A DNA stretch of 64,000 nucleotides from a virus. Made by a program: the position numbers and the translations under genes. The notes below the pieces were generated by a model that made no database searches, had not been told where the DNA came from, and saw only the letters and a program-made list of their open reading frames with translations. The stretch spans positions 1-64,000 of IMG/VR virus record IMGVR_UViG_3300025718_000001; one strand, given 5' to 3'. Positions 11,070 through 56,200 of the stretch are shown in pieces (the first letter of the stretch is position 1; each line of letters begins with the position of its first letter).

Positions 11070-11091
11070 ACCAATCACCTCCACTATCTCA

Positions 11092-11199: not shown

Positions 11200-11222
11200 C
11201 AGTACACCTCACTATCTAATAA

Positions 11223-11432: not shown

Positions 11433-11779
11433 CAGTTAACCTCCCTCAATCCCTCACCACAAGCCACCAGATTAAATCTAAGCCCACTAATTAATAAACA
11501 GGTACAATCATACTAATTTACTAACAACTAAGCTCAAACAACATAATCACAACAACGTAACAAACCCTAGTTTAATCATCCCACATCCCTCACGCTTACT
11601 ACATTCCCTGCAATCCGTGAACGAATAACACACCTCCATGTGATCAACTCCCCGAAGCTTTTACTACGCACTAATCCAGGCTAAACGCATCTGCCGCCAT
11701 ACTTTTAGTATCCTATTCCAGTTACATCCGCGCAGTTAAATAAAGGCAAAAATAAATCCAAATAATCTTTAAAAACCTC

Positions 11780-11809
11780 TTGACAACGTACCGCAATTAG
11801 CAGTACAAT
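11780..11809 (+). promoter_or_regulatory. sigma-A-type promoter for the plus-strand island
   Basis: TTGACA (11780-85), 18-nt spacer, TACAAT (11804-09). Confidence 0.6.
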
Positions 11810-11840
11810 ACAAATAACAAATCAAGGGAGGTTAACACAC

Positions 11841-11969
11841 ATGACAAGATCAAAAATGGTTAAATACCTACTAAGAGAAACACGCTACACCATCCACGAG
11901 TTAAGCGCCATGAGCGATGCAACTATCACCCGATACTACAAAGAGGAAAAGGAGTGTAATACTGAATGA
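11841..11969 (+). CDS. 42-aa hypothetical protein
   Basis: ATG follows AAGGGAGG. Its stop overlaps the next ATG (ATGA). Confidence 0.5.
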   Translation: MTRSKMVKYLLRETRYTIHELSAMSDATITRYYKEEKECNTE

Positions 11970-12136
11970 TTAAACCATCCGATAAACCCTACACCGTCGA
12001 AATATTCCAGAACGGAACATATGTCCAGTGGATTTCAACCTATGCACCTTCTCCCAACTCCGCAAGGTTAAAAGCGCTTAGAATGTTTAGGGAGGATAAC
12101 AAAGGTTCTAAAGGGATAACCGCTGTTACTAAATAA
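11966..12136 (+). CDS. 56-aa hypothetical protein
   Basis: Start is translationally coupled to the upstream ORF. Confidence 0.5.
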   Translation: MIKPSDKPYTVEIFQNGTYVQWISTYAPSPNSARLKALRMFREDNKGSKGITAVTK

Positions 12137-12151
12137 GGGGAGGAAATAACA

Positions 12152-12307
12152 ATGAAATCTTACAATCAATTATCTGATATCGAAATGGGATGGGTACAAG
12201 AATACAGAGAATGGTGTAAATGTGATATCCCAGCGCTCGCACTAGAACAGGCCACTCATTACAGAAAACTTCTTGCGAAACATGGATTGGATGCAAGTGA
12301 TTACTAA
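12152..12307 (+). CDS. 51-aa hypothetical protein
   Basis: ATG follows GGGGAGGAA. Confidence 0.5.
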   Translation: MKSYNQLSDIEMGWVQEYREWCKCDIPALALEQATHYRKLLAKHGLDASDY

Positions 12308-12385
12308 GAAGGCTTTTGCCTTCGTCTAGCTCAATCAAACTTGGTTGGTCTAGACGGAAACAAAAACTTGAAAGAAGGAATTAAA

Positions 12386-13525
12386 ATGACAAACCATAAA
12401 TTTAAAATTGGTGACAAGGTAAACTGGACCAACTCAAACAGCGTAAATCTTGGAGTAAGAACGGTAATTGGCCTTGACGAAAGAACAGGCAGACCAACGT
12501 ATTACATTGATCCTATTGATTCGCCATGGTTTTCTGTTGGTGAAGAGGAACTTGAAGAATGCACCGCAGAAAGTATTGAGACAGTTGAACTCATAGAACC
12601 CGTTCAACCCGTAGAAGTCATTGAGATAGTGGAGGAATCAAAGCCCTCTATAGTAACAGTCGAAGCTCCAGCACCAACAATCACTATACAAAACTTAAGC
12701 CTCATCAATGAACAACTAGCCCAACGGTCCAAGGAAAACATGAGTTTTTCCAGCTACACACCAGGCAGCGCAACTCGCGAATTTAACCAGGAGATCGCAG
12801 AAGTTACCACGGCAATCGAAAATGCTAAAACTAAGGTATCTCCTGAAGCGCAAAACAAACTTGATAACCTTCTCTCTTCTTACACCTCCCGATATGCAAG
12901 TTGGACCAACAGACGCAATGCAAACGGCGCAGGCCATGTTAGCGTGATGTTAGCCGGACCTTCCAATTACAATATGAGCAAGCATAACAAGTATCTATCC
13001 AAAGAAGGTAAGTTATGGGCAGAGTATGATGAGTTCAAGGATATCTACAACCGAATATCCTCAATAGTCGCAGGGGATAAGATCATCAAATCCAACGATG
13101 CCAACGCCATCGACAAGCTAAAAGAAAAACTTGCCAACGCTCAAGAAGAACATGCAGAGTACAAAGCATACAACGCCAAAGCCCGCAAAGAGGGAACACC
13201 TCCGCACATGGCCTATGTGCTTCAAAACAGCAACGGCAGGATAAAAGGTATCAAGGACCGCATCGCACACCTTGAACGACTCGCAGCACGTGGAACGCAA
13301 GAAATCGTAGTCGAAGCCGAATCAACCGAAACCGAAGGAATCCGCATAGTTGACAATGTAGAAGCGCATCGCTTACAAATCTTCTTCAACGGCAAGCCCT
13401 CCGCAGAAGTCAGATCCCAGCTGAAGAAAAACGGTTTCAGATGGACTCCAAGTATATCCGCATGGCAAGCATACAGAAGCGACAATGCCAGCAGAGCAGC
13501 GCAGGAAATCGTATCTGCAATGTAA
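12386..13525 (+). CDS. DUF3560-like plasmid/ICE-type protein
   Basis: C-terminus reads RLQIFFNGKPSAEVRSQLKKNGFRWTPSISAWQ, preceded by a coiled coil (NDANAIDKLKEKL). ATG at 12386 follows AAGAAGGAA. Confidence 0.55.
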   Translation: MTNHKFKIGDKVNWTNSNSVNLGVRTVIGLDERTGRPTYYIDPIDSPWFSVGEEELEECTAESIETVELIEPVQPVEVIEIVEESKPSIVTVEAPAPTITIQNLSLINEQLAQRSKENMSFSSYTPGSATREFNQEIAEVTTAIENAKTKVSPEAQNKLDNLLSSYTSRYASWTNRRNANGAGHVSVMLAGPSNYNMSKHNKYLSKEGKLWAEYDEFKDIYNRISSIVAGDKIIKSNDANAIDKLKEKLANAQEEHAEYKAYNAKARKEGTPPHMAYVLQNSNGRIKGIKDRIAHLERLAARGTQEIVVEAESTETEGIRIVDNVEAHRLQIFFNGKPSAEVRSQLKKNGFRWTPSISAWQAYRSDNASRAAQEIVSAM

Positions 13526-13526
13526 T

Positions 13527-13568
13527 TCCACAAGGCTAGCCCGGAGCCAATACCGGGCGAAGGAGGAA
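13527..13568 (+). promoter_or_regulatory. conserved GC hairpin abutting the SD (copy 1)
   Basis: CCACAAGGCTA-GCCCGG-agccaata-CCGGGC-GAAGGAGG. A near-identical element sits at 15037-15079. Confidence 0.5.
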
Positions 13569-13572
13569 AACC

Positions 13573-13818
13573 ATGAATACTGACAAATTAAAGGCCATCT
13601 ACCACACTAAATTCAGCAAGGGTATCAGTCGTAAATCCAACCGTATGGAAATATTGCTTGATAGGGCATGGGAAGCTCGCGATAATCACCCCGTAATGAT
13701 CAGCAATTACACAAGACTAAAAGGACCGACCCCAAAGGACCGCCTAGAACTTAAAGCACTCGGCGAATTAATCAAACTATATCAATCGCTTGCAGGATAC
13801 AGGAAGGTGGCTAGTTAA
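13573..13818 (+). CDS. hypothetical protein (81 aa)
   Basis: ORF with GGAGG plus 6 nt before the ATG. Confidence 0.6.
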   Translation: MNTDKLKAIYHTKFSKGISRKSNRMEILLDRAWEARDNHPVMISNYTRLKGPTPKDRLELKALGELIKLYQSLAGYRKVAS

Positions 13819-13974
13819 ATGGGAACAGCAGAAAAGCCAAGCATTAACGTCCGATGCACGCCAGACGAATACGCGCAAATCACAGAAAAGGCAAAATCCC
13901 ACGGAATGACCATATCCGAGTATGTCCGATTTATCGCACTAAATGCCAAGATCACAGTCAAGGCCACTAAATAA
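13819..13974 (+). CDS. ribbon-helix-helix protein, MobC/CopG-like (51 aa)
   Basis: INVRCTPDEYAQITEKAKSHGMTISEYVRFIAL matches the RHH pattern. ATG is adjacent to the upstream TAA. Confidence 0.55.
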   Translation: MGTAEKPSINVRCTPDEYAQITEKAKSHGMTISEYVRFIALNAKITVKATK

Positions 13975-14053
13975 GTGGTCTTTCTTTTTACCCTCATTTA
14001 AACCCACCATTAGTCCATTAGATATAAATACACCTAAAGGACTAGAACTAAGC

Positions 14054-14224
14054 TTAAAACCCTATCCTACGCCCTGCTAACACCCTTTCCATTTGCTCTC
14101 TCTTCCACCTCTCCACACACTCCACGCTTGATAGTCTAGCGCAATCCGAGCAACCCCGATTAGCGAACAAAACCGCAACCCCAGGTACCCATTGCCTAAG
14201 CTCAAACTTTGCACAAGGCTTCAT
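14054..14224 (-). CDS. 56-aa Cys-containing protein, divergent from the next operon
   Basis: ATG at 14224 follows GGAGGG plus 6 nt. Confidence 0.5.
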   Translation of the reverse strand: MKPCAKFELRQWVPGVAVLFANRGCSDCARLSSVECVERWKREQMERVLAGRRIGF

Positions 14225-14248
14225 TTTGTACCCTCCAAATTGTGTCAA

Positions 14249-14298
14249 ATAATAGTACAATGTAAATGCTTTACAAGTGCGTGCATGCGTGGTAAGAT
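14249..14298. promoter_or_regulatory. back-to-back divergent promoters
   Basis: Plus strand: TTTACA, 17 nt, TAAGAT (14270-98). Minus strand: TTGTAA, 16 nt, TATTAT (14276-49). Inverted repeat TGTAAA/TTTACA lies between. Confidence 0.45.
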
Positions 14299-14361
14299 AA
14301 CATCAATCAAGGAGTTGCTTGCGGAACACAAAGGGGTTCGGAGCGTAAAGGAGTTTTACGA

Positions 14362-14577
14362 ATGAAATACAGTGTAATTATAGACTGCGAAGGAATGACC
14401 ATATCCGAAATACCTGAATTAACTAAGAAGGAAGCCATTAAAACAGCCAAAGCAGAAGCGTCTATTCCCTCAATGGTAGATAGTAAAGTATTTGTAACAT
14501 GGTTTAGGCCATCAGACCAGCAACACGGATACTTAAACAGGGATGGCAACCACGAAATAACAGGGAGGGCTTGGTAA
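14362..14577 (+). CDS. hypothetical protein (71 aa)
   Basis: ORF with SD AAAGGAG. Confidence 0.6.
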   Translation: MKYSVIIDCEGMTISEIPELTKKEAIKTAKAEASIPSMVDSKVFVTWFRPSDQQHGYLNRDGNHEITGRAW

Positions 14578-14578
14578 T

Positions 14579-15034
14579 ATGCAAGTAGGGCTCAATACAC
14601 GCATCGAGCTTGATCTTCGGGTCCGGCTTGATGCTCAGGCCAAAAGAGAAGATCGCCCATTATCTAAGGTAGTAGCCGAAGCGATTGAGCAATACCTAAA
14701 TACGAAGAAGGAAAGCGAAATGAGCAAAGTCCTAAACTTCCCTGCTGATCGAATCGCTAAAGGTGTCCATTCCTACACCCCCGAAATGGGACAGCGCAAG
14801 CCGAACTGCCAAATGAGAGTCACATTAGGCCACTACGGAACGCACTATTATATCGATACCCCGCTCGAACTAAAAAAGGCCAGGGGAATCAAGCTCAGGA
14901 AGCAGTACAAAAGTTCAGACTTAACGGGTCCCGGTCAGTACATGGTCGGTTGGTACAGCTACGAAGTCACCTGCTTAGCCTACGACAGGCTGAAGGAACA
15001 GTATTCCATATCTCGCGAATCGTTATTAGACTAA
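14579..15034 (+). CDS. protein with an N-terminal ribbon-helix-helix domain (151 aa)
   Basis: The N-terminus (IELDLRVRLDAQAKREDRPLSKVVAEAIEQYL) fits the CopG/Arc pattern. Confidence 0.55.
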   Translation: MQVGLNTRIELDLRVRLDAQAKREDRPLSKVVAEAIEQYLNTKKESEMSKVLNFPADRIAKGVHSYTPEMGQRKPNCQMRVTLGHYGTHYYIDTPLELKKARGIKLRKQYKSSDLTGPGQYMVGWYSYEVTCLAYDRLKEQYSISRESLLD

Positions 15035-27678: not shown

Positions 27679-28584
27679 CTAGAATCCAGGTCCCTTCTCA
27701 GCGTTCACCTTTTCCTCGTTCTTTCGATCCATCTCCACAATCTCAGCATCGGTAATCCCTTCTTCAACTTCTCCCTCAATCTGGATATCGATCAATTCAC
27801 CGTTGGAATTCCCTTCAATCTCTTCCTTAACCCTCGCTTCGATAGCTTCATCGTCAGTCTCCTTAGCGAACTTGCTGACAATGCTCTTATCATTCGAGGT
27901 ATTAATAATCATCTTGCAAGCTTTATTGATTACTGTCTTAACGCACATATCAGCTGTGAATTTTCCATGGACGCTGCTAGGCTTGATTTCGCCATTTTCA
28001 TTTACAGGATTCATTTTGCTTTGCTTCCAGGCTTGCTTAATTTGATCAATTGTCAAGATAGTAGATTCCTCTTTGCCCGAAAAATACAAAACTGTGGCAT
28101 AGGCGGCAATGATTTTACTTTTGTTCACATTCTCAATCTTTTGATTGTGCTTGGTTATGACATCTCTCCCGCGAACTTTTGAGTATTCAAATTCGTCACC
28201 CTCATAAACTGGTTCACCAAAGATAGTTTCAATGTTCGGGTCAACCATCTTAGCAACCGCTACACTCCCAAAATAACTCCTCTGTAGCGTGAGTTTTGTG
28301 CCGTAAGCGATAAAGTAACATTGCTTTTTGTCTGGGTTTAATCCTTGTACAACCATGCCTAAGAGGGCATTAGCAATGCTTTCCTTTGTGCAAAAATCAA
28401 GGACATATTTATGGTCCATGTTCTGCGTTTCCTGCAAGATGAGCCACGCAGCCTTCAATGCGTTCTGTGGAATGTAATTAGCAGGGAAGGTTAATTCACC
28501 ATTGTTTTCAAATTCCCTGACCCGCGTTGCTACAAAATCCACTGTTTCCTTTTTTACTACTAGGGCGTTGTTTACGTTTACCAT
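27679..28584 (-). CDS. recT: RecT-family single-strand annealing recombinase
   Basis: 301 aa, typical size with an acidic tail. Sits in the usual ATPase/RecT/nuclease context. Confidence 0.7.
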   Translation of the reverse strand: MVNVNNALVVKKETVDFVATRVREFENNGELTFPANYIPQNALKAAWLILQETQNMDHKYVLDFCTKESIANALLGMVVQGLNPDKKQCYFIAYGTKLTLQRSYFGSVAVAKMVDPNIETIFGEPVYEGDEFEYSKVRGRDVITKHNQKIENVNKSKIIAAYATVLYFSGKEESTILTIDQIKQAWKQSKMNPVNENGEIKPSSVHGKFTADMCVKTVINKACKMIINTSNDKSIVSKFAKETDDEAIEARVKEEIEGNSNGELIDIQIEGEVEEGITDAEIVEMDRKNEEKVNAEKGPGF

Positions 28585-30590
28585 TATGCCTGTACCTCCA
28601 CTCTCAAAATAGGATCTTCCACACTTGCGATAAGCCTAATTAACTGTGATTTAACCTCAATAGGACTCGTTACGGCCTCTGAATTGTCCACAAAGATGAC
28701 TGCACTCACTCCGTAAAACTCTGACAACATTTCAATAATTGAAAGCCCAGCAATAATTCTTCCGCCTGTATTTGCACCATCCCATTCAACCCAAACGCCA
28801 TTCGTATTAACTAACGTCCGACAAACTTCTTTCTCGCTACCATCATTCAAGGTATCGAACAACTTAAACTTCACAGTCTCAAACCTGTTATTAATAGCGT
28901 CTTCTAGCATCTTCACCTTTGTACTGGTGAACTTTTTAATCAGATAATCGTGCCGTTCGTACTCGCTTAATTCGCCAGCTAATTTGCGCTCTTCTGCTTT
29001 TAGTTCGTTGATACGGATATGCGCCTTTTCGACTACTTCTTTTTGGTTGAGTGTTTTGTTTAGGGATTCGATTGTGTCTGTAATTTCTTGCTTTCTGGCT
29101 AGGATTTCGGTTGTTGTGTCGATGATTGGCTTTTCTAGCTCAGCGTTTATCCTGTCAAGAGTTGCCTTCAACACGGAATAGGTATCATCTGCGTCATAAT
29201 TTACGGTTGCCGGTTGTTGTTGTGCTGTGATTTCGGTTTCGAGTTCGGAAAGGCGGGTATTAATCCTTTGGAGGGATTCTTCCAGTGTGGCAAGACTCGA
29301 AACATCCATTTCCCTTTCTTTATTAAGCGCCTCGGCCCTATCTGCCTTATCCTTGCCTTTTTCACGAATAGATGCTAATAATTGAGCTTTATTCTTATTA
29401 AAGTTTTCCTTCAACTTGTCAATCTTCTCTTGCGTCTTACCTTCTGGTAATGGTTGTTCGCAAGTCGGGCAATTAATTCCACTAGGTGCTACGAATTGTT
29501 TTGCATTTTCCTCACTCCATGTTGCGCGTAGCTCGATGATTCCTTTAGTTATAGAATCCAGCTCTATGGTTCTCAGGAGAGAGTTGGAACCCAATCTTGC
29601 AACTTCCTTGGAAAAACTGTACTCTTCATCTTTGAGCCTCGCCTTTTCATCAACCAACTTCTTGACATCTGCACCAGCAGCTACTTCAAGCTCCAACTTC
29701 CGTCCATTAACTTGATTCTGCAAACCATACGCCTGTTGCTGTTTCTGGCGGTATAAACTAGCACCTTGTGCATTTGTAGCAAGTTCTAATTCAATTGCCC
29801 GTAATGTGGCTTTATGGGCTTGTATGACTGTTTCTATTGCTGCGTAGTCAATCGCATCTTCGCTGGTATTCCGTTGCTGTTCGCTAATCCGTGCAGGAAT
29901 CCCATCAAGATCCTTTTTAGTGTTTTTGATCTTTTCGGCAATGACTAGTTTGTGATTGCCGATTGTCCTGCCCGAGTTGATGATTGTTAAGAGGTCGAGC
30001 ATACTTTTGTCGCCCACAGTGACTAGAGAATCAATCACATCTGTATCCGACACATCACCCGAAATCTCAAAGAGAATCTTTCGCCGTTCTTTCCAATCCC
30101 ATCCCTTCTCATTTGTATTGAAGAATAAGGGATTCGTGAGCAGTTTAAATACGTTTTCCTTGATGATTGAACCAATTTCGATAGCGTAGTCTTTCGCTTT
30201 TGTCGGGACATCGTTGACCCAATAGGAAGTAACATTGCCTGTAAAATCTACGTTCTTTGTCGTTTGATTTTTTGTCCATTTTTCTGAAAGTTGACGTTTT
30301 AGTTTTAGTTGCTTGCCGTTGATTGTGAGTATTCCCTCTACAATTGATTCGAGATGGTGGAGTTCATTGCCGTCCTCATCCTGCGGTTTTACCTGATAAT
30401 CAGATCGATTGGCCGAATCTTTGCCGAATAGCAACCATAAAAAGCTATCGTATAAGGTAGATTTTCCAGTTGCGTTTTTTCCATAAATGTCAGCATTTTT
30501 ACCGTCAAGAGTTAACGTAAATCCTTCACCCTCTACCCCTTTGAAGTTTTTCAACATTAGTGACTGTAGGCGAATGTCAGTTTTTGTCAT
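28584..30590 (-). CDS. SMC/Rad50/SbcC-like AAA ATPase
   Basis: Walker A GKNATGKST, a long central coiled coil with CPTC, and C-terminal AGLSII...VIFVDNSE. Confidence 0.7.
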   Translation of the reverse strand: MTKTDIRLQSLMLKNFKGVEGEGFTLTLDGKNADIYGKNATGKSTLYDSFLWLLFGKDSANRSDYQVKPQDEDGNELHHLESIVEGILTINGKQLKLKRQLSEKWTKNQTTKNVDFTGNVTSYWVNDVPTKAKDYAIEIGSIIKENVFKLLTNPLFFNTNEKGWDWKERRKILFEISGDVSDTDVIDSLVTVGDKSMLDLLTIINSGRTIGNHKLVIAEKIKNTKKDLDGIPARISEQQRNTSEDAIDYAAIETVIQAHKATLRAIELELATNAQGASLYRQKQQQAYGLQNQVNGRKLELEVAAGADVKKLVDEKARLKDEEYSFSKEVARLGSNSLLRTIELDSITKGIIELRATWSEENAKQFVAPSGINCPTCEQPLPEGKTQEKIDKLKENFNKNKAQLLASIREKGKDKADRAEALNKEREMDVSSLATLEESLQRINTRLSELETEITAQQQPATVNYDADDTYSVLKATLDRINAELEKPIIDTTTEILARKQEITDTIESLNKTLNQKEVVEKAHIRINELKAEERKLAGELSEYERHDYLIKKFTSTKVKMLEDAINNRFETVKFKLFDTLNDGSEKEVCRTLVNTNGVWVEWDGANTGGRIIAGLSIIEMLSEFYGVSAVIFVDNSEAVTSPIEVKSQLIRLIASVEDPILRVEVQA

Positions 30591-30868: not shown

Positions 30869-31092
30869 TGTTTCCCCTCCTTTGCTAGAAACCTATAACC
30901 GCAATCTACGCCCGCCTCGCAACCGCCTTTGCAAAATTCATTGTGTTGGCATATTGGACAATCGTTGGTTTCCTCTCCATCTTCCTCATCCTCGACTTCG
31001 CCACGTTCAAGGGGGCGGTCTTCAATTCGTGGGTCCCATTCCCTTTCGTGCATCTCTTCATAATGCTCTCGCCCCATAATCTTCCTACCCAC
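30865..31092 (-). CDS. hypothetical acidic Cys-containing protein (75 aa)
   Basis: ORF with 4-nt overlaps to its neighbours. Confidence 0.55.
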   Translation of the reverse strand: MGRKIMGREHYEEMHEREWDPRIEDRPLERGEVEDEEDGEETNDCPICQHNEFCKGGCEAGVDCGYRFLAKEGKQ

Positions 31093-31414
31093 GCCCCCGC
31101 CTCGCCATCAACTCAATAACCTTCACTATAAGCGCAGTATCAGAACTCATTTCCACAATAGCCCCCTTCTCAGGATCAAACCAAATATCCAGCTCGCCAA
31201 TCTCATACTTGCACCGCATTTCGGTCTGCCATTCTTCCTTGATCGTTTCAGCCTCCGCAACAAGCCTTTTTGCTAATGCGTCTGCATCATCAAGGACTTT
31301 GAGTGCTTCGTCTAGCTTTGCCATTCCCCTTTTGAATCGTTCTGCCTCATCATCTGTGACAAGTGCCAATACTTTTTGTTCAGACATTGGGATCATCTTT
31401 TCTTTATCCGTCAT
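31085..31414 (-). CDS. hypothetical coiled-coil protein (109 aa)
   Basis: ORF in an operon. Confidence 0.55.
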   Translation of the reverse strand: MTDKEKMIPMSEQKVLALVTDDEAERFKRGMAKLDEALKVLDDADALAKRLVAEAETIKEEWQTEMRCKYEIGELDIWFDPEKGAIVEMSSDTALIVKVIELMARRGRG

Positions 31415-32222
31415 AACATCCGCATGCTTGGTCTACTACATCAATAAACATCGAAGGTTGATATTTACCATCCCCTAAAGCAACTTCTCCAGGCAAAGCC
31501 TTCGATTGTTCAATCTCCCTGCATCTCGTGTACCTAACAAACTTCATCCAAGAGAAACTTCTCCCAAGTCCCGAAATTGTTGTAAGATGAGCATGTATTT
31601 CCATCTTTAATGCCCTTTTTAACAAGTCGGGATGGTTTGCTCTTAATTCTAAAATCTCTGCCTTTTTCATGCTTGGGCAAAAGAAGCAGGATGATTTACC
31701 TGGTTGAGGAAGGTTTTCATTGGCAATTATTTGCTCACATTCATTCCTTCCAATATCCCATTCAATTAACGGATACCAGTATTCATATTTTTTGTCGTCG
31801 TATGCTTTAGCTCTCCTTTCTTCGTTTGCATCGTATCCAATAGCTTTAGTTACTTTTTCGCCCTTTTTCCATGTTTCTAAGGCTAATGGGAAATGGTTGC
31901 AATATTTATCCTGTGGCGCAGCCTTGAATTTTTGGGAACAAGTTTTAAATCCATAAGCTAGTGATGGTAACATTCTTTTTTCGAGACAATTTCTTTCAAG
32001 CGTCATTGTTTCCCCATTTAAATCAACCTTACTTACGGTAGTTATTGGAGGCATGCCATGAGAAACTAGCCAAAGGGAAAACATAATGATGTACCAATAT
32101 GTCTCAGGTCGTTCCCCCCCCGTATCAGCAAACAGGATGAGGTCGGGAATAATCCTGCGTTTCCACATTTCAATAAGCATTGCTGTCGAGTTTGTTCCTG
32201 CTCCATATGCAACGACTAGCAT
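31404..32222 (-). CDS. PAPS-reductase/PP-loop (adenine nucleotide alpha-hydrolase) family protein
   Basis: N-terminus VVAYGAGTNSTAMLIEMWKRRIIPDLILFADTGGERPETY resembles a PP-loop plus PAPS-reductase core. Confidence 0.5.
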   Translation of the reverse strand: MLVVAYGAGTNSTAMLIEMWKRRIIPDLILFADTGGERPETYWYIIMFSLWLVSHGMPPITTVSKVDLNGETMTLERNCLEKRMLPSLAYGFKTCSQKFKAAPQDKYCNHFPLALETWKKGEKVTKAIGYDANEERRAKAYDDKKYEYWYPLIEWDIGRNECEQIIANENLPQPGKSSCFFCPSMKKAEILELRANHPDLLKRALKMEIHAHLTTISGLGRSFSWMKFVRYTRCREIEQSKALPGEVALGDGKYQPSMFIDVVDQACGCYDG

Positions 32223-32560
32223 TCTTCACTCGCCAACTTAAGCTTTATAACTTCATTAACCGTTGCGATAAACTCCGAATTCGAGAATGGTCTTGCCCTA
32301 CCCATAATTCTCAGCCATGTTTCGTCATCTACTCTGCTTGCCCTAATCGCAGTACGAATCCCTCTCTCGACGCTGGGACCCATGCAATCTTTGTGCATTT
32401 TCGCTACTCCGGGGTATAATTCTTTCATCATTGCGTGGATTGATTCGGGATTTGTTTGCAAGAATAAAAGTGCGCTTTTTAAAAACTCATAACCTTTGAT
32501 ATGGGCAGGGATTTGGAGTTCGCGTAAGATGTTGTAGGTTTCAATTTTGAATTTGTTCAT
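32216..32560 (-). CDS. Spo0A C-terminal (effector/DNA-binding) domain protein without a receiver domain
   Basis: LQIPAHIKGYEFLKSAL, LYPGVAKM, SVERGIRTAIR and PFSNSEFIATVNEVIKLKL parallel Spo0A VPAHIKGYLYLREAI...SRVERAIRHAIE...PTNSEFIAMVADKLRL. Confidence 0.8.
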   Translation of the reverse strand: MNKFKIETYNILRELQIPAHIKGYEFLKSALLFLQTNPESIHAMMKELYPGVAKMHKDCMGPSVERGIRTAIRASRVDDETWLRIMGRARPFSNSEFIATVNEVIKLKLASEEC

Positions 32561-32577
32561 TCGTGTTCTCCTTTCTA

Positions 32578-33207
32578 TTATTGATTGGCTTTGAAGAAGG
32601 CGTTTGCGAATCCCGCTGGCGTAATACTGCGCCTGACTTGACGCTTATCTAATCCACAGGCAGGGTTATAAACGAAACCATCCGGTAATTCAGGCAAGTC
32701 TTCAAGTAAACGAGCATCAAATTTGATCGGGTCGTAGGATACTTGGTTCATTGCCGGCGTTTGGAAGTTGCCCCAAATATGAGTTATCTTTTTATATGGA
32801 TCACCAAACTGATGCGGGCTAAATTCCAACGGAGGTTTTCCGAGGAAGTATTTCAGAAATCCCCGGGGATTCTCTAGCGCCCAAAACTTCAAGGTTGTGA
32901 CTTTTGAGTTTGGACTGATTAGTGCATATTGTTGTTGCCAAATTATCCCTAAGCATCTCTTGACCAGCTTCATAGACCCCTCTAAATCTCTTGGATTCCT
33001 TGCGTTTGTACGAGCGAGACTAAAATGTGTGCAGGTTGGTGCTGCGAGAATGCCATATACCCCCCCTGGAGGCTCGTAGGTGAATAGATCGTGTTCTGGC
33101 AAGGTGACAAGTCTAACGTCATATCCTGCGTCCTTATATGGCTTGGACCAGGACCCTGTCCCACCGCATAAATCCAAGATGATCTTGTCGGAATTGTCCA
33201 TTACCAT
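32578..33207 (-). CDS. short C5-cytosine-methyltransferase-like protein with no obvious target-recognition domain
   Basis: Motif I ILDLCGGTGSWS, motif IV AAPTCTHFS, motif VI ALENPRG, and QFGDPYKK. Only 209 aa. Confidence 0.55.
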   Translation of the reverse strand: MVMDNSDKIILDLCGGTGSWSKPYKDAGYDVRLVTLPEHDLFTYEPPGGVYGILAAPTCTHFSLARTNARNPRDLEGSMKLVKRCLGIIWQQQYALISPNSKVTTLKFWALENPRGFLKYFLGKPPLEFSPHQFGDPYKKITHIWGNFQTPAMNQVSYDPIKFDARLLEDLPELPDGFVYNPACGLDKRQVRRSITPAGFANAFFKANQ

Positions 33208-33606
33208 CTACCCTTCATTTCTCATGATATCTTCCAAACTCCACACGCTTGTGCTAGACTGATCTTGTGATATTTCCTCTAGGTCCCTCTGCAAAGGGGC
33301 CTTTTTCATAACTAACTTTATGAGCGTTTCTTCCTCATAATTGATATAAAACAGCTCACATTCCACCCCATCCATAGGGTCTGTGTAGTTTAGCGACTTG
33401 CCAGCGTGTTCGAGATTCGGGAATAATTCGTCAAGCTCATCGCTGATCGCTTGTTCGACTCTATTCCAATCAACATCAGGCATGGAATGTATTACGATTG
33501 CCGAGGTTGAGTCGTTCAGGAGTTCGATGGTCACTCTTTGGATTATGCTTGGGTATTTAGCGAGTTCTTTGATGGCTTGGAATTGGTCTGACGTTATTTC
33601 TTTCAT
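33208..33606 (-). CDS. hypothetical protein (132 aa)
   Basis: ATG at 33606 overlaps the upstream TGA (ATGA). Confidence 0.55.
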   Translation of the reverse strand: MKEITSDQFQAIKELAKYPSIIQRVTIELLNDSTSAIVIHSMPDVDWNRVEQAISDELDELFPNLEHAGKSLNYTDPMDGVECELFYINYEEETLIKLVMKKAPLQRDLEEISQDQSSTSVWSLEDIMRNEG

Positions 33607-33836
33607 TCTCCTACTCCCCAATTACAGCAATCGAATCTATCAAACCCACTCGGCTTCTCCGTCTCCGCATCCCTCACGGCTTGTCCCTTCATTATCAATT
33701 GCCAATCATGCCGATACTGCTCCTCACGCTGATCCTCATGCTCTTTCCTCCACGCCTCAACTTCTCTGCGGAACCAATTGACTTTGAGTAGTTGCTTGCC
33801 AATTGCCTTTGCCCACTTTTTCATAAGGTTTTTCAT
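33603..33836 (-). CDS. hypothetical protein (77 aa)
   Basis: ORF in an operon. Confidence 0.55.
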   Translation of the reverse strand: MKNLMKKWAKAIGKQLLKVNWFRREVEAWRKEHEDQREEQYRHDWQLIMKGQAVRDAETEKPSGFDRFDCCNWGVGE

Positions 33837-33840
33837 CGTT

Positions 33841-34725
33841 TTAACCCTTCCTCCTTCGGTATTCTGGCCACGGTGTTGTTTTGAATGTGGCTTTATGGAT
33901 TACCCATCTCGCAAAGTCAGCCTGATATGGATCTGTTTTATCAAAAGGCATTACGAACGGGTCTACACCCAAACTCTTTAGCATTTCGACCCTGTATAAA
34001 TCCTCATCCTCAGTTGTGTCGTATCCGATCAGAACGTAGAACATCAATTTGTAAGGCAACATATACTTTGTTAGAATTCGTATACCATCCAATACAACTT
34101 GCTCTAGATCCATTGAATCCCAAGCGAATCTTAACTTTCCGCTTTTCCATAACCTAACCTTAGAGAGACGCTTCGCCTTATCGTCATCTATCAAGCGAAT
34201 ATCTAATCCTTGATTAAAATCTGTCTTAATCTTATGTTTGATAACTTGATTGACAATCAGATTAAAATGTTCCGTATCTCCCGTTAAATTGTTATCCATC
34301 AGAGTTATATGCTCTTGGCCTTGCCAAAATTGGTGTATGTCTGCTACAGGGTGCAAACGGCCCTCCTTAATGGGCACGATACAGAAAGAGCAAGAACGGT
34401 TGCATCCTCGTGTACAAAACCCTCTCGACACCTGAGAGTTGTATAAAGAGTAGTCGGGATACATTGTTTCCACTTCGTCAGGTAACTTGATCGTTAGGTC
34501 GAATCCACTTCCACCTTGAATTATTTCGCAATCTGGAAAGTATCCGTAGTTATCAGAAGCTTTAAATATTTTAGATGAGTAGATACGGTCTGGTTTGTTC
34601 TCCTTAATATCAAACATGGGGTCAAATATCTTGACAGAATCCCCAAGCCCTTTGTGGTAAGCCGACAGCTTCATAAGTACTAAGTTCGGTATCTTGGAAT
34701 CAACATCGACCAAACCTACCTTCAT
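33841..34725 (-). CDS. radical SAM enzyme
   Basis: CNRSCSFC (CX3CX2C) follows a Rossmann-like N-terminus (MKVGLVDVDSKIPNLVLMKLSAYHK). Confidence 0.6.
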   Translation of the reverse strand: MKVGLVDVDSKIPNLVLMKLSAYHKGLGDSVKIFDPMFDIKENKPDRIYSSKIFKASDNYGYFPDCEIIQGGSGFDLTIKLPDEVETMYPDYSLYNSQVSRGFCTRGCNRSCSFCIVPIKEGRLHPVADIHQFWQGQEHITLMDNNLTGDTEHFNLIVNQVIKHKIKTDFNQGLDIRLIDDDKAKRLSKVRLWKSGKLRFAWDSMDLEQVVLDGIRILTKYMLPYKLMFYVLIGYDTTEDEDLYRVEMLKSLGVDPFVMPFDKTDPYQADFARWVIHKATFKTTPWPEYRRRKG

Positions 34726-34958
34726 CTTTTGTCAGCCTTCCGTTGCGCTACCATCGCTTCATACCGTTCCTTCCGCTTCTCCTTCATCTTCGCAAACCCC
34801 GAAGCAACTGGAATATTCGTGATCGCCCAAAACCCTTCTGTGCCAAGGGTCCATGTTGCGCGGCAGTATTTGTTTTGGCATTTGGTTTGGACTTGGCCAT
34901 CTGGAAAGGTTATTTCTTTACCGCACTGGCAGAGTTGAGTTGGAGATTGTACGACCAT
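34722..34958 (-). CDS. zinc-ribbon protein (78 aa)
   Basis: CQC...C..KYC motif. SD GAGGAGGAAG. Confidence 0.55.
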   Translation of the reverse strand: MVVQSPTQLCQCGKEITFPDGQVQTKCQNKYCRATWTLGTEGFWAITNIPVASGFAKMKEKRKERYEAMVAQRKADKR

Positions 34959-35140
34959 TGGGCTTCCTCCTCTTGCTTTTTTCTAGGAGTAAAGTAGTTC
35001 AGATTCACCATTTGAAGACCACAGCATTTGTTACATGGGGAAGCATAGTGCGAAACCGTAACATTTGTGCAAAAACTGCAATTTGGGCAAACATCTTTAT
35101 TGATGTCAAAGTGAGTAGGAAAAAGTGCTGGTTTAAGCAT
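34910..35140 (-). CDS. Cys-rich protein (76 aa)
   Basis: CPNCSFC...CNKCC motifs. SD GGGAGGAG. Confidence 0.55.
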   Translation of the reverse strand: MLKPALFPTHFDINKDVCPNCSFCTNVTVSHYASPCNKCCGLQMVNLNYFTPRKKQEEEAQWSYNLQLNSASAVKK

Positions 35141-40169: not shown

Positions 40170-40480
40170 TGCCTAATTTTGGCAGGAATAATAGACGAAC
40201 GGTACGCCATACCTTTCAGTATCACCTAAACGTTGAATGAAACGGTCAACGGCTATCAATCTACACTAGGAGGTGAAAGCTTGTAACTAATCGGTAGTGA
40301 AAACGCTTTTGATGGCTCCTACCTTTTATCGCTAATAACTAGCGTATTGTTACATCAAGAGGGTGGTTGACATCACCCTGTTCTTCCCAGGATCATGCCT
40401 GAGAAGAAACGGCATGACGGTACTCTATTCCCATCTGCCTTAGATTCATAGCTCCAATTCTATCGTCATTTGATTGATAG
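40170..40480 (-). ncRNA. candidate TnpB omega RNA (reRNA); boundaries approximate
   Basis: Hairpins downstream of the tnpB stop: GGGTG..CACCC, CGCTA..TAGCG, CGTTGA..TCAACG and GGTA..TACC. Confidence 0.4.
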
Positions 40481-41514
40481 CCACATGATTTACAAGTGAA
40501 GCTATGTTTTTTCTTGTTGCGATTAGATCGCTCAGTATGACCGCACTTTGGGCATTTCTGACTTGTATATCTTGGATCAACTGCAATTGTCTGATTTCCT
40601 GCCAACATTGATTTATATTCAATCTTGCTTCTCATGTCAAGAAACGCCCAAGAAACGGAATAGTATCTGTCCTGACGTTTAACGCGTTCAGTAGCAGAAC
40701 GAATTCCTTTTAGATCCTCTAAGACTATAAGACTATTAGATCCCGCAAATTCAACGAGTGCCTTAGCAGTTTGATGATTAACATCTTGTTGCCAACGGTT
40801 TTCTCTATTACCAATCTTTCTTAATCGCCTGCGAGAGGATGGAGTTTTCTTTTGTTGTAGAGACTTCCTTATTCTCTTAAACTGAGCTTTTTTGTTCTTG
40901 ATATATCTACCACCAACGAAGAGGGTCTTGTTATTACTGTCAATGGCTGTGACAAGATAATTCATTCCAACATCAACACCTACAACATTTATGATGTCAT
41001 TATTGGGGCAGATTGCGAATTCCTTTTTAACAGATATATGGAGATAATATTTATCCTTCTTCTTAACTAGAGTACTTGCCCCATACTCCCAAGTTCCATC
41101 AAAATAGTCTTCCAATCCTTTGGCGACGTATGACATCTTAATTCTAGTGCCTATTGTCCCGATACTCAATGTACCGTCTTTGAGAAACGAATAGTCTCGA
41201 TTATAAGAATATTGGAGTTTTGGTTGTTTATAAACAGCCAAGGTGTTCTCTCCGTTCGATTTCATTGACGCATATGTCCCTGCTACCACTGAGCAGACGT
41301 TACAGGCCATCTGGGACTTCAATTGAAACTGTTCCCTAAGATCATAGTAGACTAACCCCTGCAACTTCTTAAATGCTGACAGTTGATTATTCTTAAATGC
41401 AATTTCACTAGCGAAATTCAAACCAGCTTTAACCTGTATTAATGTTTTATCTAACTGTCTTTTCTGCTCTTCATTTGGTAAAAGCTTAACCTTTGCAGTA
41501 ATAATAGCTTCCAT
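40393..41514 (-). CDS. tnpB: TnpB RNA-guided endonuclease (OrfB)
   Basis: RuvC-I VGVDVGMNY, RuvC-II VLEDLKG, zinc ribbon CPKCGH...CKSCGY and RuvC-III NDDRIGAMN. Confidence 0.9.
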   Translation of the reverse strand: MEAIITAKVKLLPNEEQKRQLDKTLIQVKAGLNFASEIAFKNNQLSAFKKLQGLVYYDLREQFQLKSQMACNVCSVVAGTYASMKSNGENTLAVYKQPKLQYSYNRDYSFLKDGTLSIGTIGTRIKMSYVAKGLEDYFDGTWEYGASTLVKKKDKYYLHISVKKEFAICPNNDIINVVGVDVGMNYLVTAIDSNNKTLFVGGRYIKNKKAQFKRIRKSLQQKKTPSSRRRLRKIGNRENRWQQDVNHQTAKALVEFAGSNSLIVLEDLKGIRSATERVKRQDRYYSVSWAFLDMRSKIEYKSMLAGNQTIAVDPRYTSQKCPKCGHTERSNRNKKKHSFTCKSCGYQSNDDRIGAMNLRQMGIEYRHAVSSQA

Positions 41515-41565: not shown

Positions 41566-41603
41566 CGAATAGAAGTCCTAACGTTGAGTTGAAAGGAGAA
41601 AGA

Positions 41604-42959
41604 ATGAAAAAGCACAGCGACTTCTCTTCTGAAATTAAAGAGCAAATTATGAGAGCTATATACCGTGGACCAGATAACGAAATACCCTCTGCCATCTATG
41701 ATGCAATTTCTATCCTGTATGCTAGTTGCCCCCTTAAGCCATTCATTTTCAAGAAAACTCTTCTCTCCCCCAAGGAAAAACTAAAGCCTCAGCTACCCGA
41801 AAACCTCAATCCGCAAGAAATCCTCCACTGGATAATGCACAGACCAAAACTAAAGCAGACATGGTGCTTAGTGATTCACCTGCCGCCTGGAATAGACTTC
41901 ACTGAGTTCAAAAGTAGAGAACCCTACTTCTCCACAGCGATTGGCAACGGTTCATGCGAAATAGAGCGCAATGGAAAAGTTGTATTAATGACCATATCTA
42001 ATATATTACTCAATAAGTCATATCCTTTTGAGTTCGACCCATACCCATATCTAAAGAAAATGAGCTTGCCTATCCTCCTTGGCTATAGTGCAAGTGGTCC
42101 TATTATTGTAGATATGGCAGAGCTAGTGACTATTTTAACAGGAGGACTCAGGGGATCGGGCAAGTCAGTTTTATTCCACGGAGCTATATATAGTCTCCTA
42201 AGGCTTAACACCGACCTACTCAATCCTAAAGTAATTGTCTGTATCATCGACCCAAAGATTAAGGAATTCAAATACTTTGAGGAATATGGCGCAATATGGG
42301 TTCATGACATGGATGAAATACGGCAACTACTCGAAATGTTAGATGAAGAGAACGAACGCAGACAGGACTTAATCGGTGGCAAGGCTAACAACATCATTGA
42401 ATATCATGCGCTTGGAAAGAAGTTGCCTTTTGTTGTTGTGGTAGCAGATGAAGTAACTGACTTAGGCGAAGATAAGAATTGCAGGAAGTTAATGATTAAG
42501 GCAGTGCGCAAGTATCGTAGTCAAGGAATTTATGTATGGGCAGCTACGCAAAGGCCTTCCGCAAAAGCATGGGGAAGTTCAAACGAATTCAGCGAATTCA
42601 AGAGCCAGTTTGAATCAAGGGTATGCTTCAGGACCGCCGACCCTATTAACAGTCAAATGATATTGGATTCCAACCGTGCTAGTTCCCTTCCGAAGATCCC
42701 CGGTCGAGCCATCTATAAATTCAGCGAAGAGACTGAAATACAAGTTCCTTATTTTCCATCTAAGGCAAAGCATCCTAAACTATTTCACGAACTTATGGAC
42801 CAATTACCCAAAGTTGCACTTCCCTATCACAACATCGAAGGTGAGGTATATGATTATGAACCCAATTACCCACTCCAAAGGACGCAAAAGAGATCAGCAG
42901 GTCCTAGCGCATCTCGAAGCTTGCGGGGTCTTATCTCAGGAGCAAATACATTTGCTTGA
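41604..42959 (+). CDS. FtsK/SpoIIIE-family DNA translocase ATPase
   Basis: Walker A GGLRGSGKS, Walker B FVVVVADEV, and ATQRPS. ATG at 41604 follows AAAGGAGAA. Confidence 0.8.
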   Translation: MKKHSDFSSEIKEQIMRAIYRGPDNEIPSAIYDAISILYASCPLKPFIFKKTLLSPKEKLKPQLPENLNPQEILHWIMHRPKLKQTWCLVIHLPPGIDFTEFKSREPYFSTAIGNGSCEIERNGKVVLMTISNILLNKSYPFEFDPYPYLKKMSLPILLGYSASGPIIVDMAELVTILTGGLRGSGKSVLFHGAIYSLLRLNTDLLNPKVIVCIIDPKIKEFKYFEEYGAIWVHDMDEIRQLLEMLDEENERRQDLIGGKANNIIEYHALGKKLPFVVVVADEVTDLGEDKNCRKLMIKAVRKYRSQGIYVWAATQRPSAKAWGSSNEFSEFKSQFESRVCFRTADPINSQMILDSNRASSLPKIPGRAIYKFSEETEIQVPYFPSKAKHPKLFHELMDQLPKVALPYHNIEGEVYDYEPNYPLQRTQKRSAGPSASRSLRGLISGANTFA

Positions 42960-53232: not shown

Positions 53233-56200
53233 TTATTTCAAGAACAATTTCTTTGAGTTATTTTCCACGGATTGCATTAATTTAGGGGTATCGGCAGAGA
53301 CGGCTTTATTTGTAAGGATTAACATTTGGTCCTTAATGATCTTAATCTTGTCATCCTTCAAGGGGTCCGAACTAGATTGAATCTTATTAATCAACTTGGT
53401 CCCTCGACTTAACGCCGTACCCACCCCATTCATGGAGTTCCTCATATCTTCCTCTGGAGTTAGCTTTTTACCCGGTATCTTTTCGATGATATTCTTATCT
53501 ACTGCTGCCGCCGAAAGTTTATTGAGTTTGTCGTAATAGTCAGTCGTAGCCTGGTTACTAAATGTCGGGTCTGCCGTAAATTGTGTCTTCATAGCCTTTA
53601 ACGGGCTACCCCCTGGTACAAGTAGTGGTATCCCGATTTGGCCAATTACCCCGCTGTATGACTTAACTAGGTAATCAAGTATCTTCGGAGACAGTCCGCC
53701 CGGAAGACCGGGTACATTGGTTGTCAATTCTCCAATAGTCTTAGCAACAGAGGAAGTCTTGTCATCGTATTGTAGATAGTTAGAACGTTTGTCCATGAGC
53801 ATCCCTTGGGGAACTATTGCACGATTAGCGAAATCTTTATTCTTTCCGATATCGATAGCGGGGGTAATTAAACTACTTTCCAGAGGATTAGCCGGAGCGA
53901 AATTAGTTGCCACAGAATTACTAAATCCAGAAAATGAATTTTTCTGCCCCTCCGCTGCCCTCAAACCTCTCTCAAATAACGATCCAAACAACACGCCAAG
54001 TTCTCTGGATTTAGGAACTTTCCAGAATTCACCGTTACCCTTTGGTATAAGGAAGTAAGCATCTTTGGTTCTATTATCTAATGCCTGATAATTTGGGTCG
54101 TCCTTATTTACCATGTAAAGTGCAAGGTCGGGAGCAGTAATAGCAACGCCAGATTTAACGATTGTTGCGACTGCCGTCTTAGGGGAAAGGAATCCTCTAA
54201 AGAATTTGTCTAGTCCTTGGAAGCTCGCATTTACATACATTCCACCCATTTTATCAATATTCTTTGTGACATTTCCACCCCTAGAGAAATTAACGGTTAC
54301 ATCATTGGCGGCAAATAATGCCTTTGTCACATCACCCGTTTTATCAAGAACGCGATTAAACTCGGCAAGTCGGGGAGCCGCCTCAGTGAGATTATTAAAT
54401 CTTTCAATAGCCTTCAAGGGCTTTAGTGCTATATTCTTAATGGGGTTTATTTTTCCTGTCAATTCTGTCGCTGACTTAGTCACATCGCCAGACTTGAAGA
54501 AATTAGCACCACCACCACCGACCGCTTGGTATTTTTGTAATCGTGGGCTATTGGTCAATATGTCCTTACCCGCCCCAACGAGACCACTTGTAAACTTTAA
54601 GGGATTACTCTCGCTACCATAAGCGTAGGCGGTAGGGATATCTCTTGCGATATTACGTATTGCGAACAGGGGATTCTTCTGTGTGATCAATCCCTTGATG
54701 CCGTTAGTAACCGCCGTTAGAACGGGAACACTATTTATGCTTTTAGGCAACCCGTTCATGGCATCAAGTAACATCCTGTCGTTAATTTGTAAATATTGAG
54801 CTTTTCCATCCACAAGAACAGAGATAACATTATCCGTATTGGCGGTCATTCCATCCTTAACAGGGATAACTTCTGCAAATTGTTTCATCTTTTCAGGGCT
54901 ACTCTTAACAGCATCAAGTAGACTTTGCCCGACTTCGTTATACTTGGCTGTTCGGACAACCTTGCTAACTAGATTCATAATGTTTTCAATAGGGTCAATA
55001 ATGTCTCGTTCTGATCCAGTTGCCTTACGAATTGGAGTTCGTTGGTCTGCAAACTTAGAAGCTACTCCATCTGGTATGGCGCTCTCTAGTGTACTGAAAT
55101 CCCGCTGAGTGGGGAAATAAGACTTATAAGTTTGGCGCAAACTGGCGTATATGTCTTTATTAACGATACCAGTATCCACGCCCCACGTAGTCATGAAATC
55201 ATCTAACCACTTAACGATGCCATCCCCTACCGCTTTATATTCAGGATGCGCTTGTTCCGCAATTTTAACCGCATCTTCCGACATGCTAGGAGTGTAGTTT
55301 GCTTGAACGGGAGTAGGCTTTTTGGTGACCACTTTGTTCATAATCGGATTACCGTACTTATCATTGACAGTGAATCCCTGCTTATCTGTTTTAGGTACCA
55401 TATTGAATTCTTCCCTGGCTCTGTCGATATTATGGCGCTGTGACATGTACGTCCAAAATTCTTCCTCTTGGCCTTTTGGGATTGCTTCTACAGTTTTCTT
55501 TAGCGAATCGCCAACAACGTCACCATTCTTATCAACCATTGAGGTTAAAAAGTTATGATCTACAATGCCGCTAACGCTCTTTGTGTTACTTGCCAATTTA
55601 CCAACATCTGAACCAGCAATTTTCCCAACATCATAAATAGGCTGTTGGGTATTGACTACTTTTACATAAAACTTTTTCAAAGCGTCCTTAAAGGTGATCT
55701 TATCCTTTGGTTTTCCAATTATAATTTTACTTTGTGGTTCAGGTAATTCATCAGGTCGGTTAGCATCTGTCCTAATATTTTCAGATACGCCTCTTTCTTT
55801 TAGTCCTGCCGGAATACTTGGCTCCGATCCGATAACACTTTGAGGTACAGCATTCTGTGAGAACTTTTGAAGATCCATCCCTAGTAACGTTCTAATCTCT
55901 TCCTCGTTAGAAAGCTTACTGATATCAAGTTTACCTGATTGGATGTCCTTTTTCATAATCTCTAGGGTAAAAGGAGGTTGTTCTCCTTTGGCAAATAACT
56001 CCTTACTGACGCTTTGCCAGAACACCTTAGTATCTTTCGGCAATGGAGTTGGGCTCCTTAACGGAGTAGAATCATACCTAATCTCACTCAAAGGAACCCC
56101 CGAATTACTACCCTTAATCGTTACATAATCCACGCCATTATGATTGCCAGCATAGCCCGTCACTTCTACAGGTTGGTCAACATCTTTATTGGCCCATGTT

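Follow-up and report, generated by a model that had tools for sequence, protein, structure and literature searches.

A probable mosaic island of radical-SAM, minimal C5-methyltransferase-like and SspD-like genes in a phage early operon

Do three enzyme genes packed into one phage operon encode a single nucleic-acid modification pathway, or have they come together as separable cassettes? The question is raised by IMG/VR virus record IMGVR_UViG_3300025718_000001, of which positions 1 to 64,000 were analysed (the window, 64,000 nucleotides, to which all coordinates refer unless a locus is named). On its minus strand lie genes for a 294-amino acid (aa) radical S-adenosylmethionine (SAM) enzyme (33841–34725), a 209-aa protein resembling a minimal C5 DNA methyltransferase (MTase; 32578–33207), and a 272-aa PP-loop protein resembling 3′-phosphoadenosine-5′-phosphosulfate (PAPS) reductases and SspD (31404–32222). 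A preliminary description of this DNA had reported three enzyme-like genes within 3.3 kb and proposed that they form a modification or anti-restriction module. The open reading frames (ORFs) are present at the positions and on the strand reported there, and the motifs it quoted, CNRSCSFC, LDLCGGTGS, PTCTHFS, ENP, YGAGTNST and ADTGGERPETY, all occur where expected.

From the existence of the genes, their family and fold assignments, the geometry of co-transcription, the co-occurrence statistics and the mosaicism observed among relatives, we lean, with somewhat better than even confidence, towards the second answer. The region would be a mosaic island at the head of a phage early (recombination and replication) operon, made up of accessory genes that can each be exchanged on its own, and not a fixed three-step pathway. 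The three genes appear independent because their families rarely co-occur, because the slot occupied here by the radical-SAM gene is empty or otherwise filled in relatives, and because the radical-SAM gene of phage phiCT453B stands alone. On this reading the island genes have a theme in common, modification or protection of the element's DNA, but no common pathway.

Distribution of the three families and variation among relatives

For each family 80 viral loci were collected (240 in total), these being the best 80 matches per scan, with many of the contigs short. Loci were scored with hidden Markov models (HMMs) built from the homologue sets, together with iterative HMMs for full-length C5 MTases and for the broader PAPS-reductase-like (PAPS-like) proteins, at a threshold of E ≤ 1e-5. 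Among loci anchored on the short MTase, a radical-SAM gene was present in 2/80 and a PAPS-like gene in 4/80. The PAPS-like anchors were accompanied by a radical-SAM gene once in 80 loci and by the short MTase in none (0/80). Around the radical-SAM anchors the short MTase was found in 3/80, and a fourth case, L046, was seen only at E = 3.6e-5. All three families occurred together in just one of the 240 viral loci (L028). The preliminary description had named co-occurrence of the families in related genomes as a test of its module; they were seldom found together, and relatives carried different combinations. When C5 MTases at large are considered, contiguous runs in the order C5 MTase, PAPS-like, radical-SAM or PAPS-like, radical-SAM, C5 MTase are found in Dulem virus 39, L022 and L043, and the genes lie close together in L003, L283 and L028.

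The close relatives show where the variation lies. Gene order is o78-o77-PAPS-o137-SbcC-RecT in L172, o78-[full-length C5 MTase]-o77-PAPS-o137 in L176, and o78-o77-[C5 MTase]-Spo0AC-PAPS-o137 in L175. The slot between o78 and o77 (positions 33836–34722 of the window) thus acts as a hot spot for insertion: it is occupied by the radical-SAM gene in the window and by a full-length C5 MTase in L176, while L172 and L175 have no gene there. Its upstream edge is formed by the Cys-rich o78 (78 aa, 34722–34958, minus strand), which overlaps the radical-SAM start and is conserved in L172, L174, L175 and L176, all without the radical-SAM gene. On the other side, o77 (77 aa, 33603–33836, minus strand) is kept in relatives with or without that gene. 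The short MTase is absent from L172, L175 and L176.

The radical-SAM gene can also do without its partners. The complete 36.7-kb genome of Clostridium phage phiCT453B encodes a homologue (41% identity) with no MTase or PAPS-like gene alongside it, which speaks against the earlier idea of one module of exactly this combination.

Neighbourhoods of the radical-SAM genes

If a fixed three-enzyme module is unsupported, the proposed theme of modification or anti-restriction is still plausible, since radical-SAM genes are enriched beside MTase and PAPS-like genes. In a Pfam census limited to ORFs of 150 aa or more, 148 ORFs from 69 non-redundant loci lay within 1.2 kb of a radical-SAM gene. N6_N4_Mtase (13) and C5 DNA_methylase (12) were the most frequent families, accounting together for 25/148 ORFs, and PAPS_reduct (4) came next. 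In these loci, ORFs at least 5 kb away included 2 from each of the two MTase families, or 4/140 (Fisher p = 5.5e-5). Near the PAPS-like and short-MTase anchors, which likewise reside in replication modules, MTases made up 6/103 and 5/113 ORFs, respectively (11/216; Fisher p = 2.9e-4 against the radical-SAM anchors). The distant-ORF control includes structural modules; exchanging the anchor addresses this, but draws on other phage sets. C5-MTase density fell from 0.11 per kb at less than 0.5 kb from the radical-SAM gene to 0.004–0.007 per kb beyond 1.5 kb, and PAPS-like density from 0.069 per kb to about 0.005 per kb farther out. These neighbours always lay on the strand of the radical-SAM gene.

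The pattern was replicated in 38 non-redundant bacterial and archaeal loci. Of these, 8 had a C5 MTase no more than 2 kb away and 6 a PAPS-like gene at up to 2.5 kb, most of these neighbours being directly adjacent to the radical-SAM gene. Pairs of a radical-SAM gene and a C5 MTase were found in close relatives from Desulfitobacterium hafniense and one metagenomic contig. The MTases adjoining radical-SAM genes are not mutual orthologues: the C5 types are unconnected by BLAST, and N6/N4 types also occur. This preferred position beside DNA methyltransferases suggests that the radical-SAM enzyme may act on DNA or nucleotides.

The family is not confined to phages, and its hosts are overwhelmingly strict anaerobes, methanogens included. 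Three large clusters of homologues, each at least 90% identical internally, lie in conjugation-element gene clusters, and one of them spans 22 genomes from many Clostridia genera. The homologues at L326:9956–10897, L286:10001–10900 and L270:10001–10909 are 40–42% identical to the radical-SAM protein of the window. The L326 and L286 copies are flanked by TrbL/VirB6-like and VirB4-like genes within the conjugation operon of an integrative and conjugative element (ICE), with an N6 MTase 2.7 kb downstream in L326; the L270 copy has as neighbours genes for a cell-wall hydrolase, a topoisomerase and a CD1107-like mobile-element protein. Two viral contigs carry a pair of radical-SAM paralogues in tandem or near-tandem (L048:9986–11689 and L059:7602–11369).

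The encoded proteins and their setting

Each of the three enzymes belongs to a large conserved family (7575 homologues of the radical-SAM protein, 6546 of the MTase-like protein and 4669 of the PAPS-like protein), so none of the ORFs is there by chance. For all three proteins the nearest named relatives are from Desulfosporosinus and Desulfitobacterium. None of them reaches an above-threshold family in Pfam or NCBIfam. A megablast search of positions 31000–35000 against 50,697 phage records gave zero matches, so that no annotated close relative was available, and a literature search found no study of this radical-SAM family or of this gene combination. The family assignments of the preliminary description nonetheless hold for all three proteins, as set out below.

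Over its full length the radical-SAM protein matches phrog_9298, annotated as "radical SAM domain protein" (E = 7.8e-79). Conventional profiles recognise it poorly: Pfam Radical_SAM (PF04055) scored 22.1 bits, under its 29.5 cut-off, and spanned only aa 105–123, a precomputed PF04055 match was present in 4 of the 120 homologues listed, and no NCBIfam cut-off was reached (11–18 bits against cut-offs of 251–600). The motif CNRSCSFC (aa 108–115; 34381–34404, minus strand) has the CX3CX2C form expected to hold the [4Fe-4S]/SAM cluster. Its cysteines, C108, C112 and C115, were invariant in the 28–30 homologues aligned, as were a QGLDxR motif and several acidic residues in 30 homologues. In an AlphaFold (AF2) model with a predicted local distance difference test (pLDDT) score of 93.3, an N-terminal flavodoxin/B12-binding-like domain (about aa 1–75) is followed by a predicted radical-SAM core. 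The only significant Foldseek matches in the Protein Data Bank (PDB) were radical-SAM enzymes, namely MtaB/MiaB (E = 1e-8 to 2e-6) and AprD4 (4e-6), at 10–14% sequence identity.

With MiaB/MtaB and AprD4 the protein thus has in common both its two-domain layout and a radical-SAM core carrying CX3CX2C. Unlike MiaB, RimO and MtaB, the protein lacks the three N-terminal auxiliary-cluster cysteines of UPF0004, no conserved cysteine preceding C108 among the first 100 residues of the 30 homologues, and it lacks the C-terminal TRAM domain, ending at residue 294, about 180 residues past the cluster motif. Since these cysteines and the TRAM domain are missing, the protein is not a methylthiotransferase; its TIGR00089 score, 18 bits, falls under the cut-off of 251. 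At the N-terminus lies a short Rossmann-like unit with weak matches to NCBIfam B12/radical-SAM families (0.002–0.09), and no solved class B (cobalamin-dependent) enzyme was among the significant Foldseek matches. Viral matches in a BFVD structure search were unnamed or generic, such as "COG1032 Fe-S oxidoreductase". A repair role like that of spore photoproduct lyase was rejected, as no structure of that enzyme appeared in the top 50 listed structural matches and many of the hosts are non-sporulating.

The 209-aa protein matches phrog_757 ("DNA methyltransferase", E = 5.5e-27). It reached no Pfam family at E ≤ 0.1, PF00145 included, and a profile search with its family against PDB sequences gave no significant match, and none to a DNA MTase. 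The fold is more telling. All of the top 50 Foldseek PDB matches of its AF2 model (pLDDT 87) were C5 DNA MTases, among them M.HaeIII (4.4e-6), DNMT3A/B and M.HhaI, and hhalign against full-length C5 MTases from related loci gave 91.7% probability from motif I through the Pro-Cys motif IV. Motif I (LDLCGGTGS, 33151–33177), the PC motif (PTCTHFS, 33019–33039) and ENP (32866–32874) all lie on the minus strand, and DLCGGTG, P57-x-C59 and E112-N113-P114 were invariant in 32 homologues. On the strength of these catalytic residues and the modelled fold, the protein most probably makes 5-methylcytosine (5mC).

The remark in the preliminary description that the protein has no room for a target-recognition domain (TRD) proved correct. 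In bacterial C5 MTases the TRD is roughly 80–110 aa long. From motif VIII to the C-terminal helix the present protein has about 45 residues (aa 148–192), mostly coil with pLDDT 65–81, and this region varies with indels across the short-MTase family. Thus the protein shares its predicted fold with M.HaeIII, M.HhaI and DNMT3A/B (Foldseek E = 4e-6 to 1e-4), and motif I, the PC cysteine and ENV/ENP are conserved, whereas about 45 low-confidence residues stand in place of the TRD of M.HaeIII and M.HhaI. The DNMT3 catalytic domain is nearest in size, the TM-scores of the C5-MTase matches being modest (0.4–0.6), and a DNMT3-like mini recognition loop might occupy this stretch. The candidates o137 and o78 were rejected as a TRD or partner subunit acting in trans, both being kept in relatives without the MTase-like and radical-SAM genes.

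The 272-aa protein matches phrog_424 (PAPS reductase, E = 3.2e-31) but did not reach Pfam PAPS_reduct (PF01507) at E ≤ 0.1; PF01507 is precomputed for two homologues, 63% and 57% identical to it. SspD was the only PADLOC family matched at E ≤ 1 (E = 4.8e-16, 57 bits, aa 4–230 of 272), with no match to the DndC profile at that threshold. In a PDB profile search with the family nothing was significant, a solved PAPS reductase appearing at E = 1.2. The motif ADTGGERPETY (32097–32129) aligns to tDTGylfpETYqF of PAPS reductase 6vpu, and YGAGTNST lies at 32184–32207. Seven cysteines are invariant in the family, including a CxxC (CFFCP, 31674–31688) and a C-terminal CxC, and this conservation suggests an Fe-S or zinc site. 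The C-terminal catalytic motif of CysH is ECGLH; the present protein ends instead in ...ACGCYDG (CGCYDG at 31407–31424, minus strand as for the other motifs).

Around PAPS-like genes in 49 non-redundant loci, the neighbours are replication and recombination genes, such as those for DNA polymerase A, exonucleases, DnaB and SNF2. No sulfur-metabolism family was among the 25 commonest of the 59 neighbouring families. Labelling the gene as a sulfur auxiliary metabolic gene (AMG) is doubtful, given the greater affinity of its product to SspD than to assimilatory reductases and its place among replication genes. Phage PAPS-reductase homologues may act beyond sulfur metabolism (PMC11437467), and lone sspD-like genes in Acinetobacter prophage DgiS1 have been read as possible self-marking (PMC12421847).

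A 668-aa SMC/SbcC-like ATPase is encoded at 28584–30590 (minus strand) and matches Lamassu LmuB (4.2e-16) and phrog_77. It lies upstream of RecT and a metallo-β-lactamase (MBL)-fold hydrolase, and has the look of an ATPase from a recombination module that is akin to SMC proteins of defence systems. One idea considered and rejected was a partial Dnd/Ssp system in which this ATPase would serve as DndD or SspC: the match is to LmuB, those to PbeC are weak and at the level of Walker A only, and the gene belongs to a RecT/MBL recombination module.

The enzyme genes form part of a run of seven closely packed minus-strand genes at 31085–34725, with o78 overlapping at the upstream edge. The order of transcription is o78, radical-SAM, o77, o137, MTase-like, Spo0A_C, PAPS-like and o109, so the Spo0A-C homologue and two ORFs (o77 and o137) are located between the enzyme genes, in agreement with the preliminary description. 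Intergenic gaps are 17 bp or less, or the genes overlap, and shuffled sequence gives promoter-like and terminator-like matches at least as often as the cluster does. This fits one transcription unit upstream of SbcC-like, RecT, DnaD, DnaB and SSB genes. Downstream on the same strand are the SbcC/SMC-like ATPase, RecT, MBL-fold hydrolase, an HNH protein, a DnaD-like loader, DnaB and SSB, and the window also encodes a portal protein, a large terminase and a primase, so that "early operon of a phage" is a fair label.

The Spo0A_C gene (32216–32560, minus strand) encodes a 114-aa homologue of the Spo0A C-terminal, DNA-binding domain (PF08769, E = 8.7e-18; TIGR02875, E = 1.1e-17, under its cut-off). 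It overlaps the start of the PAPS-like gene; the same pair occurs in L175, and a radical-SAM, C5 MTase, Spo0AC series in L088. Going by the domain match, this phage copy of the Spo0A effector domain could interfere with host sporulation control. The 137-aa o137 (33208–33621, minus strand) has no family match. It is found directly downstream of the PAPS-like gene in relatives, overlapping or abutting its end at L172:10791–11252, L175:10735–11181 and L176:10750–11196, and upstream of the MTase-like gene in the window, and this shifted position points to a local rearrangement. In the window it is o109 (109 aa, 31085–31414, minus strand) that overlaps the end of the PAPS-like gene.

Elsewhere in the window, an insertion sequence (IS)-type transposase at 40393–41514 (minus strand; phrog_506, 1.2e-45) stands beside a divergent FtsK/SpoIIIE-like gene at 41589–42959 (plus strand; phrog_1358, 9.8e-45). 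A 1591-aa ORF at 53233–58008 (minus strand) matches only PHROGs without an assigned function (phrog_9854, 5e-42) and lies among tail and lysis-like virion genes. A plus-strand block at 9785–15034, with the primase at 12341–13525, breaks an otherwise minus-strand genome and coincides with a change in the sign of the AT skew.

Alternative readings and known systems

As a mosaic island, the region would work through separate contributions from its genes. The 209-aa protein would be an orphan minimal C5 methyltransferase that keeps the catalytic Cys of the PC motif and the ENP glutamate, and would methylate phage DNA cytosines, most likely with little sequence specificity, so as to blunt host restriction. 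The 272-aa protein would be a PP-loop, probably Fe-S, enzyme of the SspD/PAPS-reductase kind that acts without Ssp or Dnd partners, nucleic-acid or nucleotide adenylation or sulfur transfer being a more likely role than assimilatory sulfate reduction. The radical-SAM protein, from a family of phages and conjugative elements mostly in anaerobes, may carry out a DNA- or nucleotide-directed modification or aid the establishment of incoming DNA.

Several points weigh against this reading. Every biochemical activity in it, and the anti-restriction purpose itself, is something we infer. Because de-replication of the loci went no further than 90% identity, the counts lack phylogenetic independence, and the C5-MTase and PAPS-like HMMs were self-built and may miss divergent members, though the Pfam census agrees with them. 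About 70% of radical-SAM loci have no MTase neighbour, which leaves the guilt-by-association argument incomplete, and the position of the gene between VirB6-like and VirB4-like genes in ICEs might point to a role unrelated to DNA modification. Finally, enzymes that truly cooperate, rather than a shared location, could lie behind the tight and often overlapping placement of radical-SAM genes next to those for MTases or PAPS-like proteins.

Such cooperation could take the form of pairs built around the radical-SAM enzyme, with a varying partner. The enzyme would either process DNA marked by the MTase, for example by a radical reaction on 5mC or N6-methyladenine as an anaerobic counterpart of TET-type chemistry, or form a split sulfur-insertion system with the Fe-S PP-loop protein. 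Taken together these possibilities seem to us improbable, yet several observations favour them. At 0.5 kb or less from the radical-SAM gene, C5-MTase and PAPS-like genes are 16- to 26-fold over-represented, always on the same strand, and the enrichment recurs in bacterial and archaeal genomes. With MiaB/MtaB methylthiotransferases as the closest structures and the auxiliary-cluster cysteines absent, a separate sulfur donor is conceivable, and the PAPS-like family offers invariant CxxC and CxC cysteines. Strict anaerobes, moreover, make up most of the hosts, and in them 5mC cannot be oxidised by an O2-dependent route. However, most radical-SAM loci, about 70%, have neither an MTase nor a PAPS-like neighbour, phiCT453B encodes no partner of its own, and no fusion proteins were seen. 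The partner MTases also belong to chemically different classes (C5 and N6/N4), which are hard to fit to a single substrate.

A broader proposal, that the radical-SAM family is a DNA-modifying enzyme of the mobile elements of anaerobes, working with neighbouring MTases or SspD-like Fe-S PP-loop proteins, is one we would rate as unlikely but worth keeping in view. Oxygen-independent radical functionalisation of methylated bases or a split sulfur-insertion system could be examples. If this were so, the phage "PAPS reductase" would be a nucleic-acid modification enzyme rather than a sulfur-metabolism AMG.

A dedicated pathway, in which the C5-MTase-like, radical-SAM and PP-loop enzymes would hypermodify DNA or RNA by successive steps at a single base or backbone position, appears decidedly improbable. 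In its favour, enzymes of all three classes take part in known nucleic-acid modification pathways, the genes are co-transcribed within 3.3 kb, and comparable arrangements exist in the contiguous runs and looser groups listed above. Against it stand the scarcity of the short MTase near the other two families and of the radical-SAM gene near PAPS-like genes, and the close relatives that hold a PAPS-like gene without the other two. The radical-SAM gene occurs without either partner both in a complete phage genome and in ICEs, and the MTases that adjoin it are not orthologous. By our estimate, the number of loci with both partners is about that expected from independent linkage.

That the genes serve metabolism instead, with the PAPS-like protein boosting host assimilatory sulfate reduction, the radical-SAM enzyme serving the host and the MTase nearby only incidentally, is very hard to credit: PHROGs does class phrog_424 as 'moron, auxiliary metabolic gene and host takeover', and phage PAPS reductases are commonly treated as sulfur AMGs in the literature (PMC13369170), but the 272-aa protein prefers SspD to the Pfam and solved PAPS reductases, differs from CysH in its conserved CxxC and its C-terminus, and has replication and recombination genes for neighbours.

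If the mosaic-island reading is true, the window holds an ordinary phage anti-restriction island that exposes two large mobile-element families. The radical-SAM family would then be a candidate source of a new activity in anaerobes, in either DNA modification or DNA establishment, because it is statistically tied to DNA methyltransferase genes in phages and lies inside ICE conjugation operons of gut Clostridia. The SspD-like affinity and replication-module context of phage "PAPS reductases" argue against their routine annotation as sulfur AMGs in virome studies.

Of the known systems, SspABCD phosphorothioation resembles the island in one respect, as SspD, a PP-loop ATP pyrophosphatase, gives the best defence profile for the 272-aa protein. 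It differs in the rest: SspA (the cysteine desulfurase), SspB, SspC and Dnd partners were not found among the operon genes scanned, and the SMC-like neighbour matches LmuB, not DndD/SspC. Acinetobacter prophage DgiS1 is likewise reported to carry a lone sspD-like gene. Phage clusters for QueC/QueE 7-deazaguanine and for thymidine hypermodification likewise combine a PP-loop or radical-SAM enzyme with DNA-modifying functions, but DpdA/TGT, QueD, FolE, hydroxymethyldeoxyuridine (hmdU) kinase and a pyridoxal phosphate (PLP) enzyme were not found in the operon. The 7-deazaguanine route was rejected, the PP-loop protein being PAPS-reductase/SspD-like rather than QueC-like and QueE a weak structural match (rank 19, TMq 0.39).

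The island belongs to the known class of phage orphan-MTase or anti-restriction islands. It shares with them an early-operon MTase without a cognate endonuclease, variable accessory genes, and a content that differs among relatives. It differs in that the MTase is a 209-aa minimal form missed by PF00145, and in the presence of two uncharacterised enzyme families. What it adds to the class is a statistically supported lead on a radical-SAM family of about 7,500 homologues, with no curated family of its own, and on the SspD-like "PAPS reductases".

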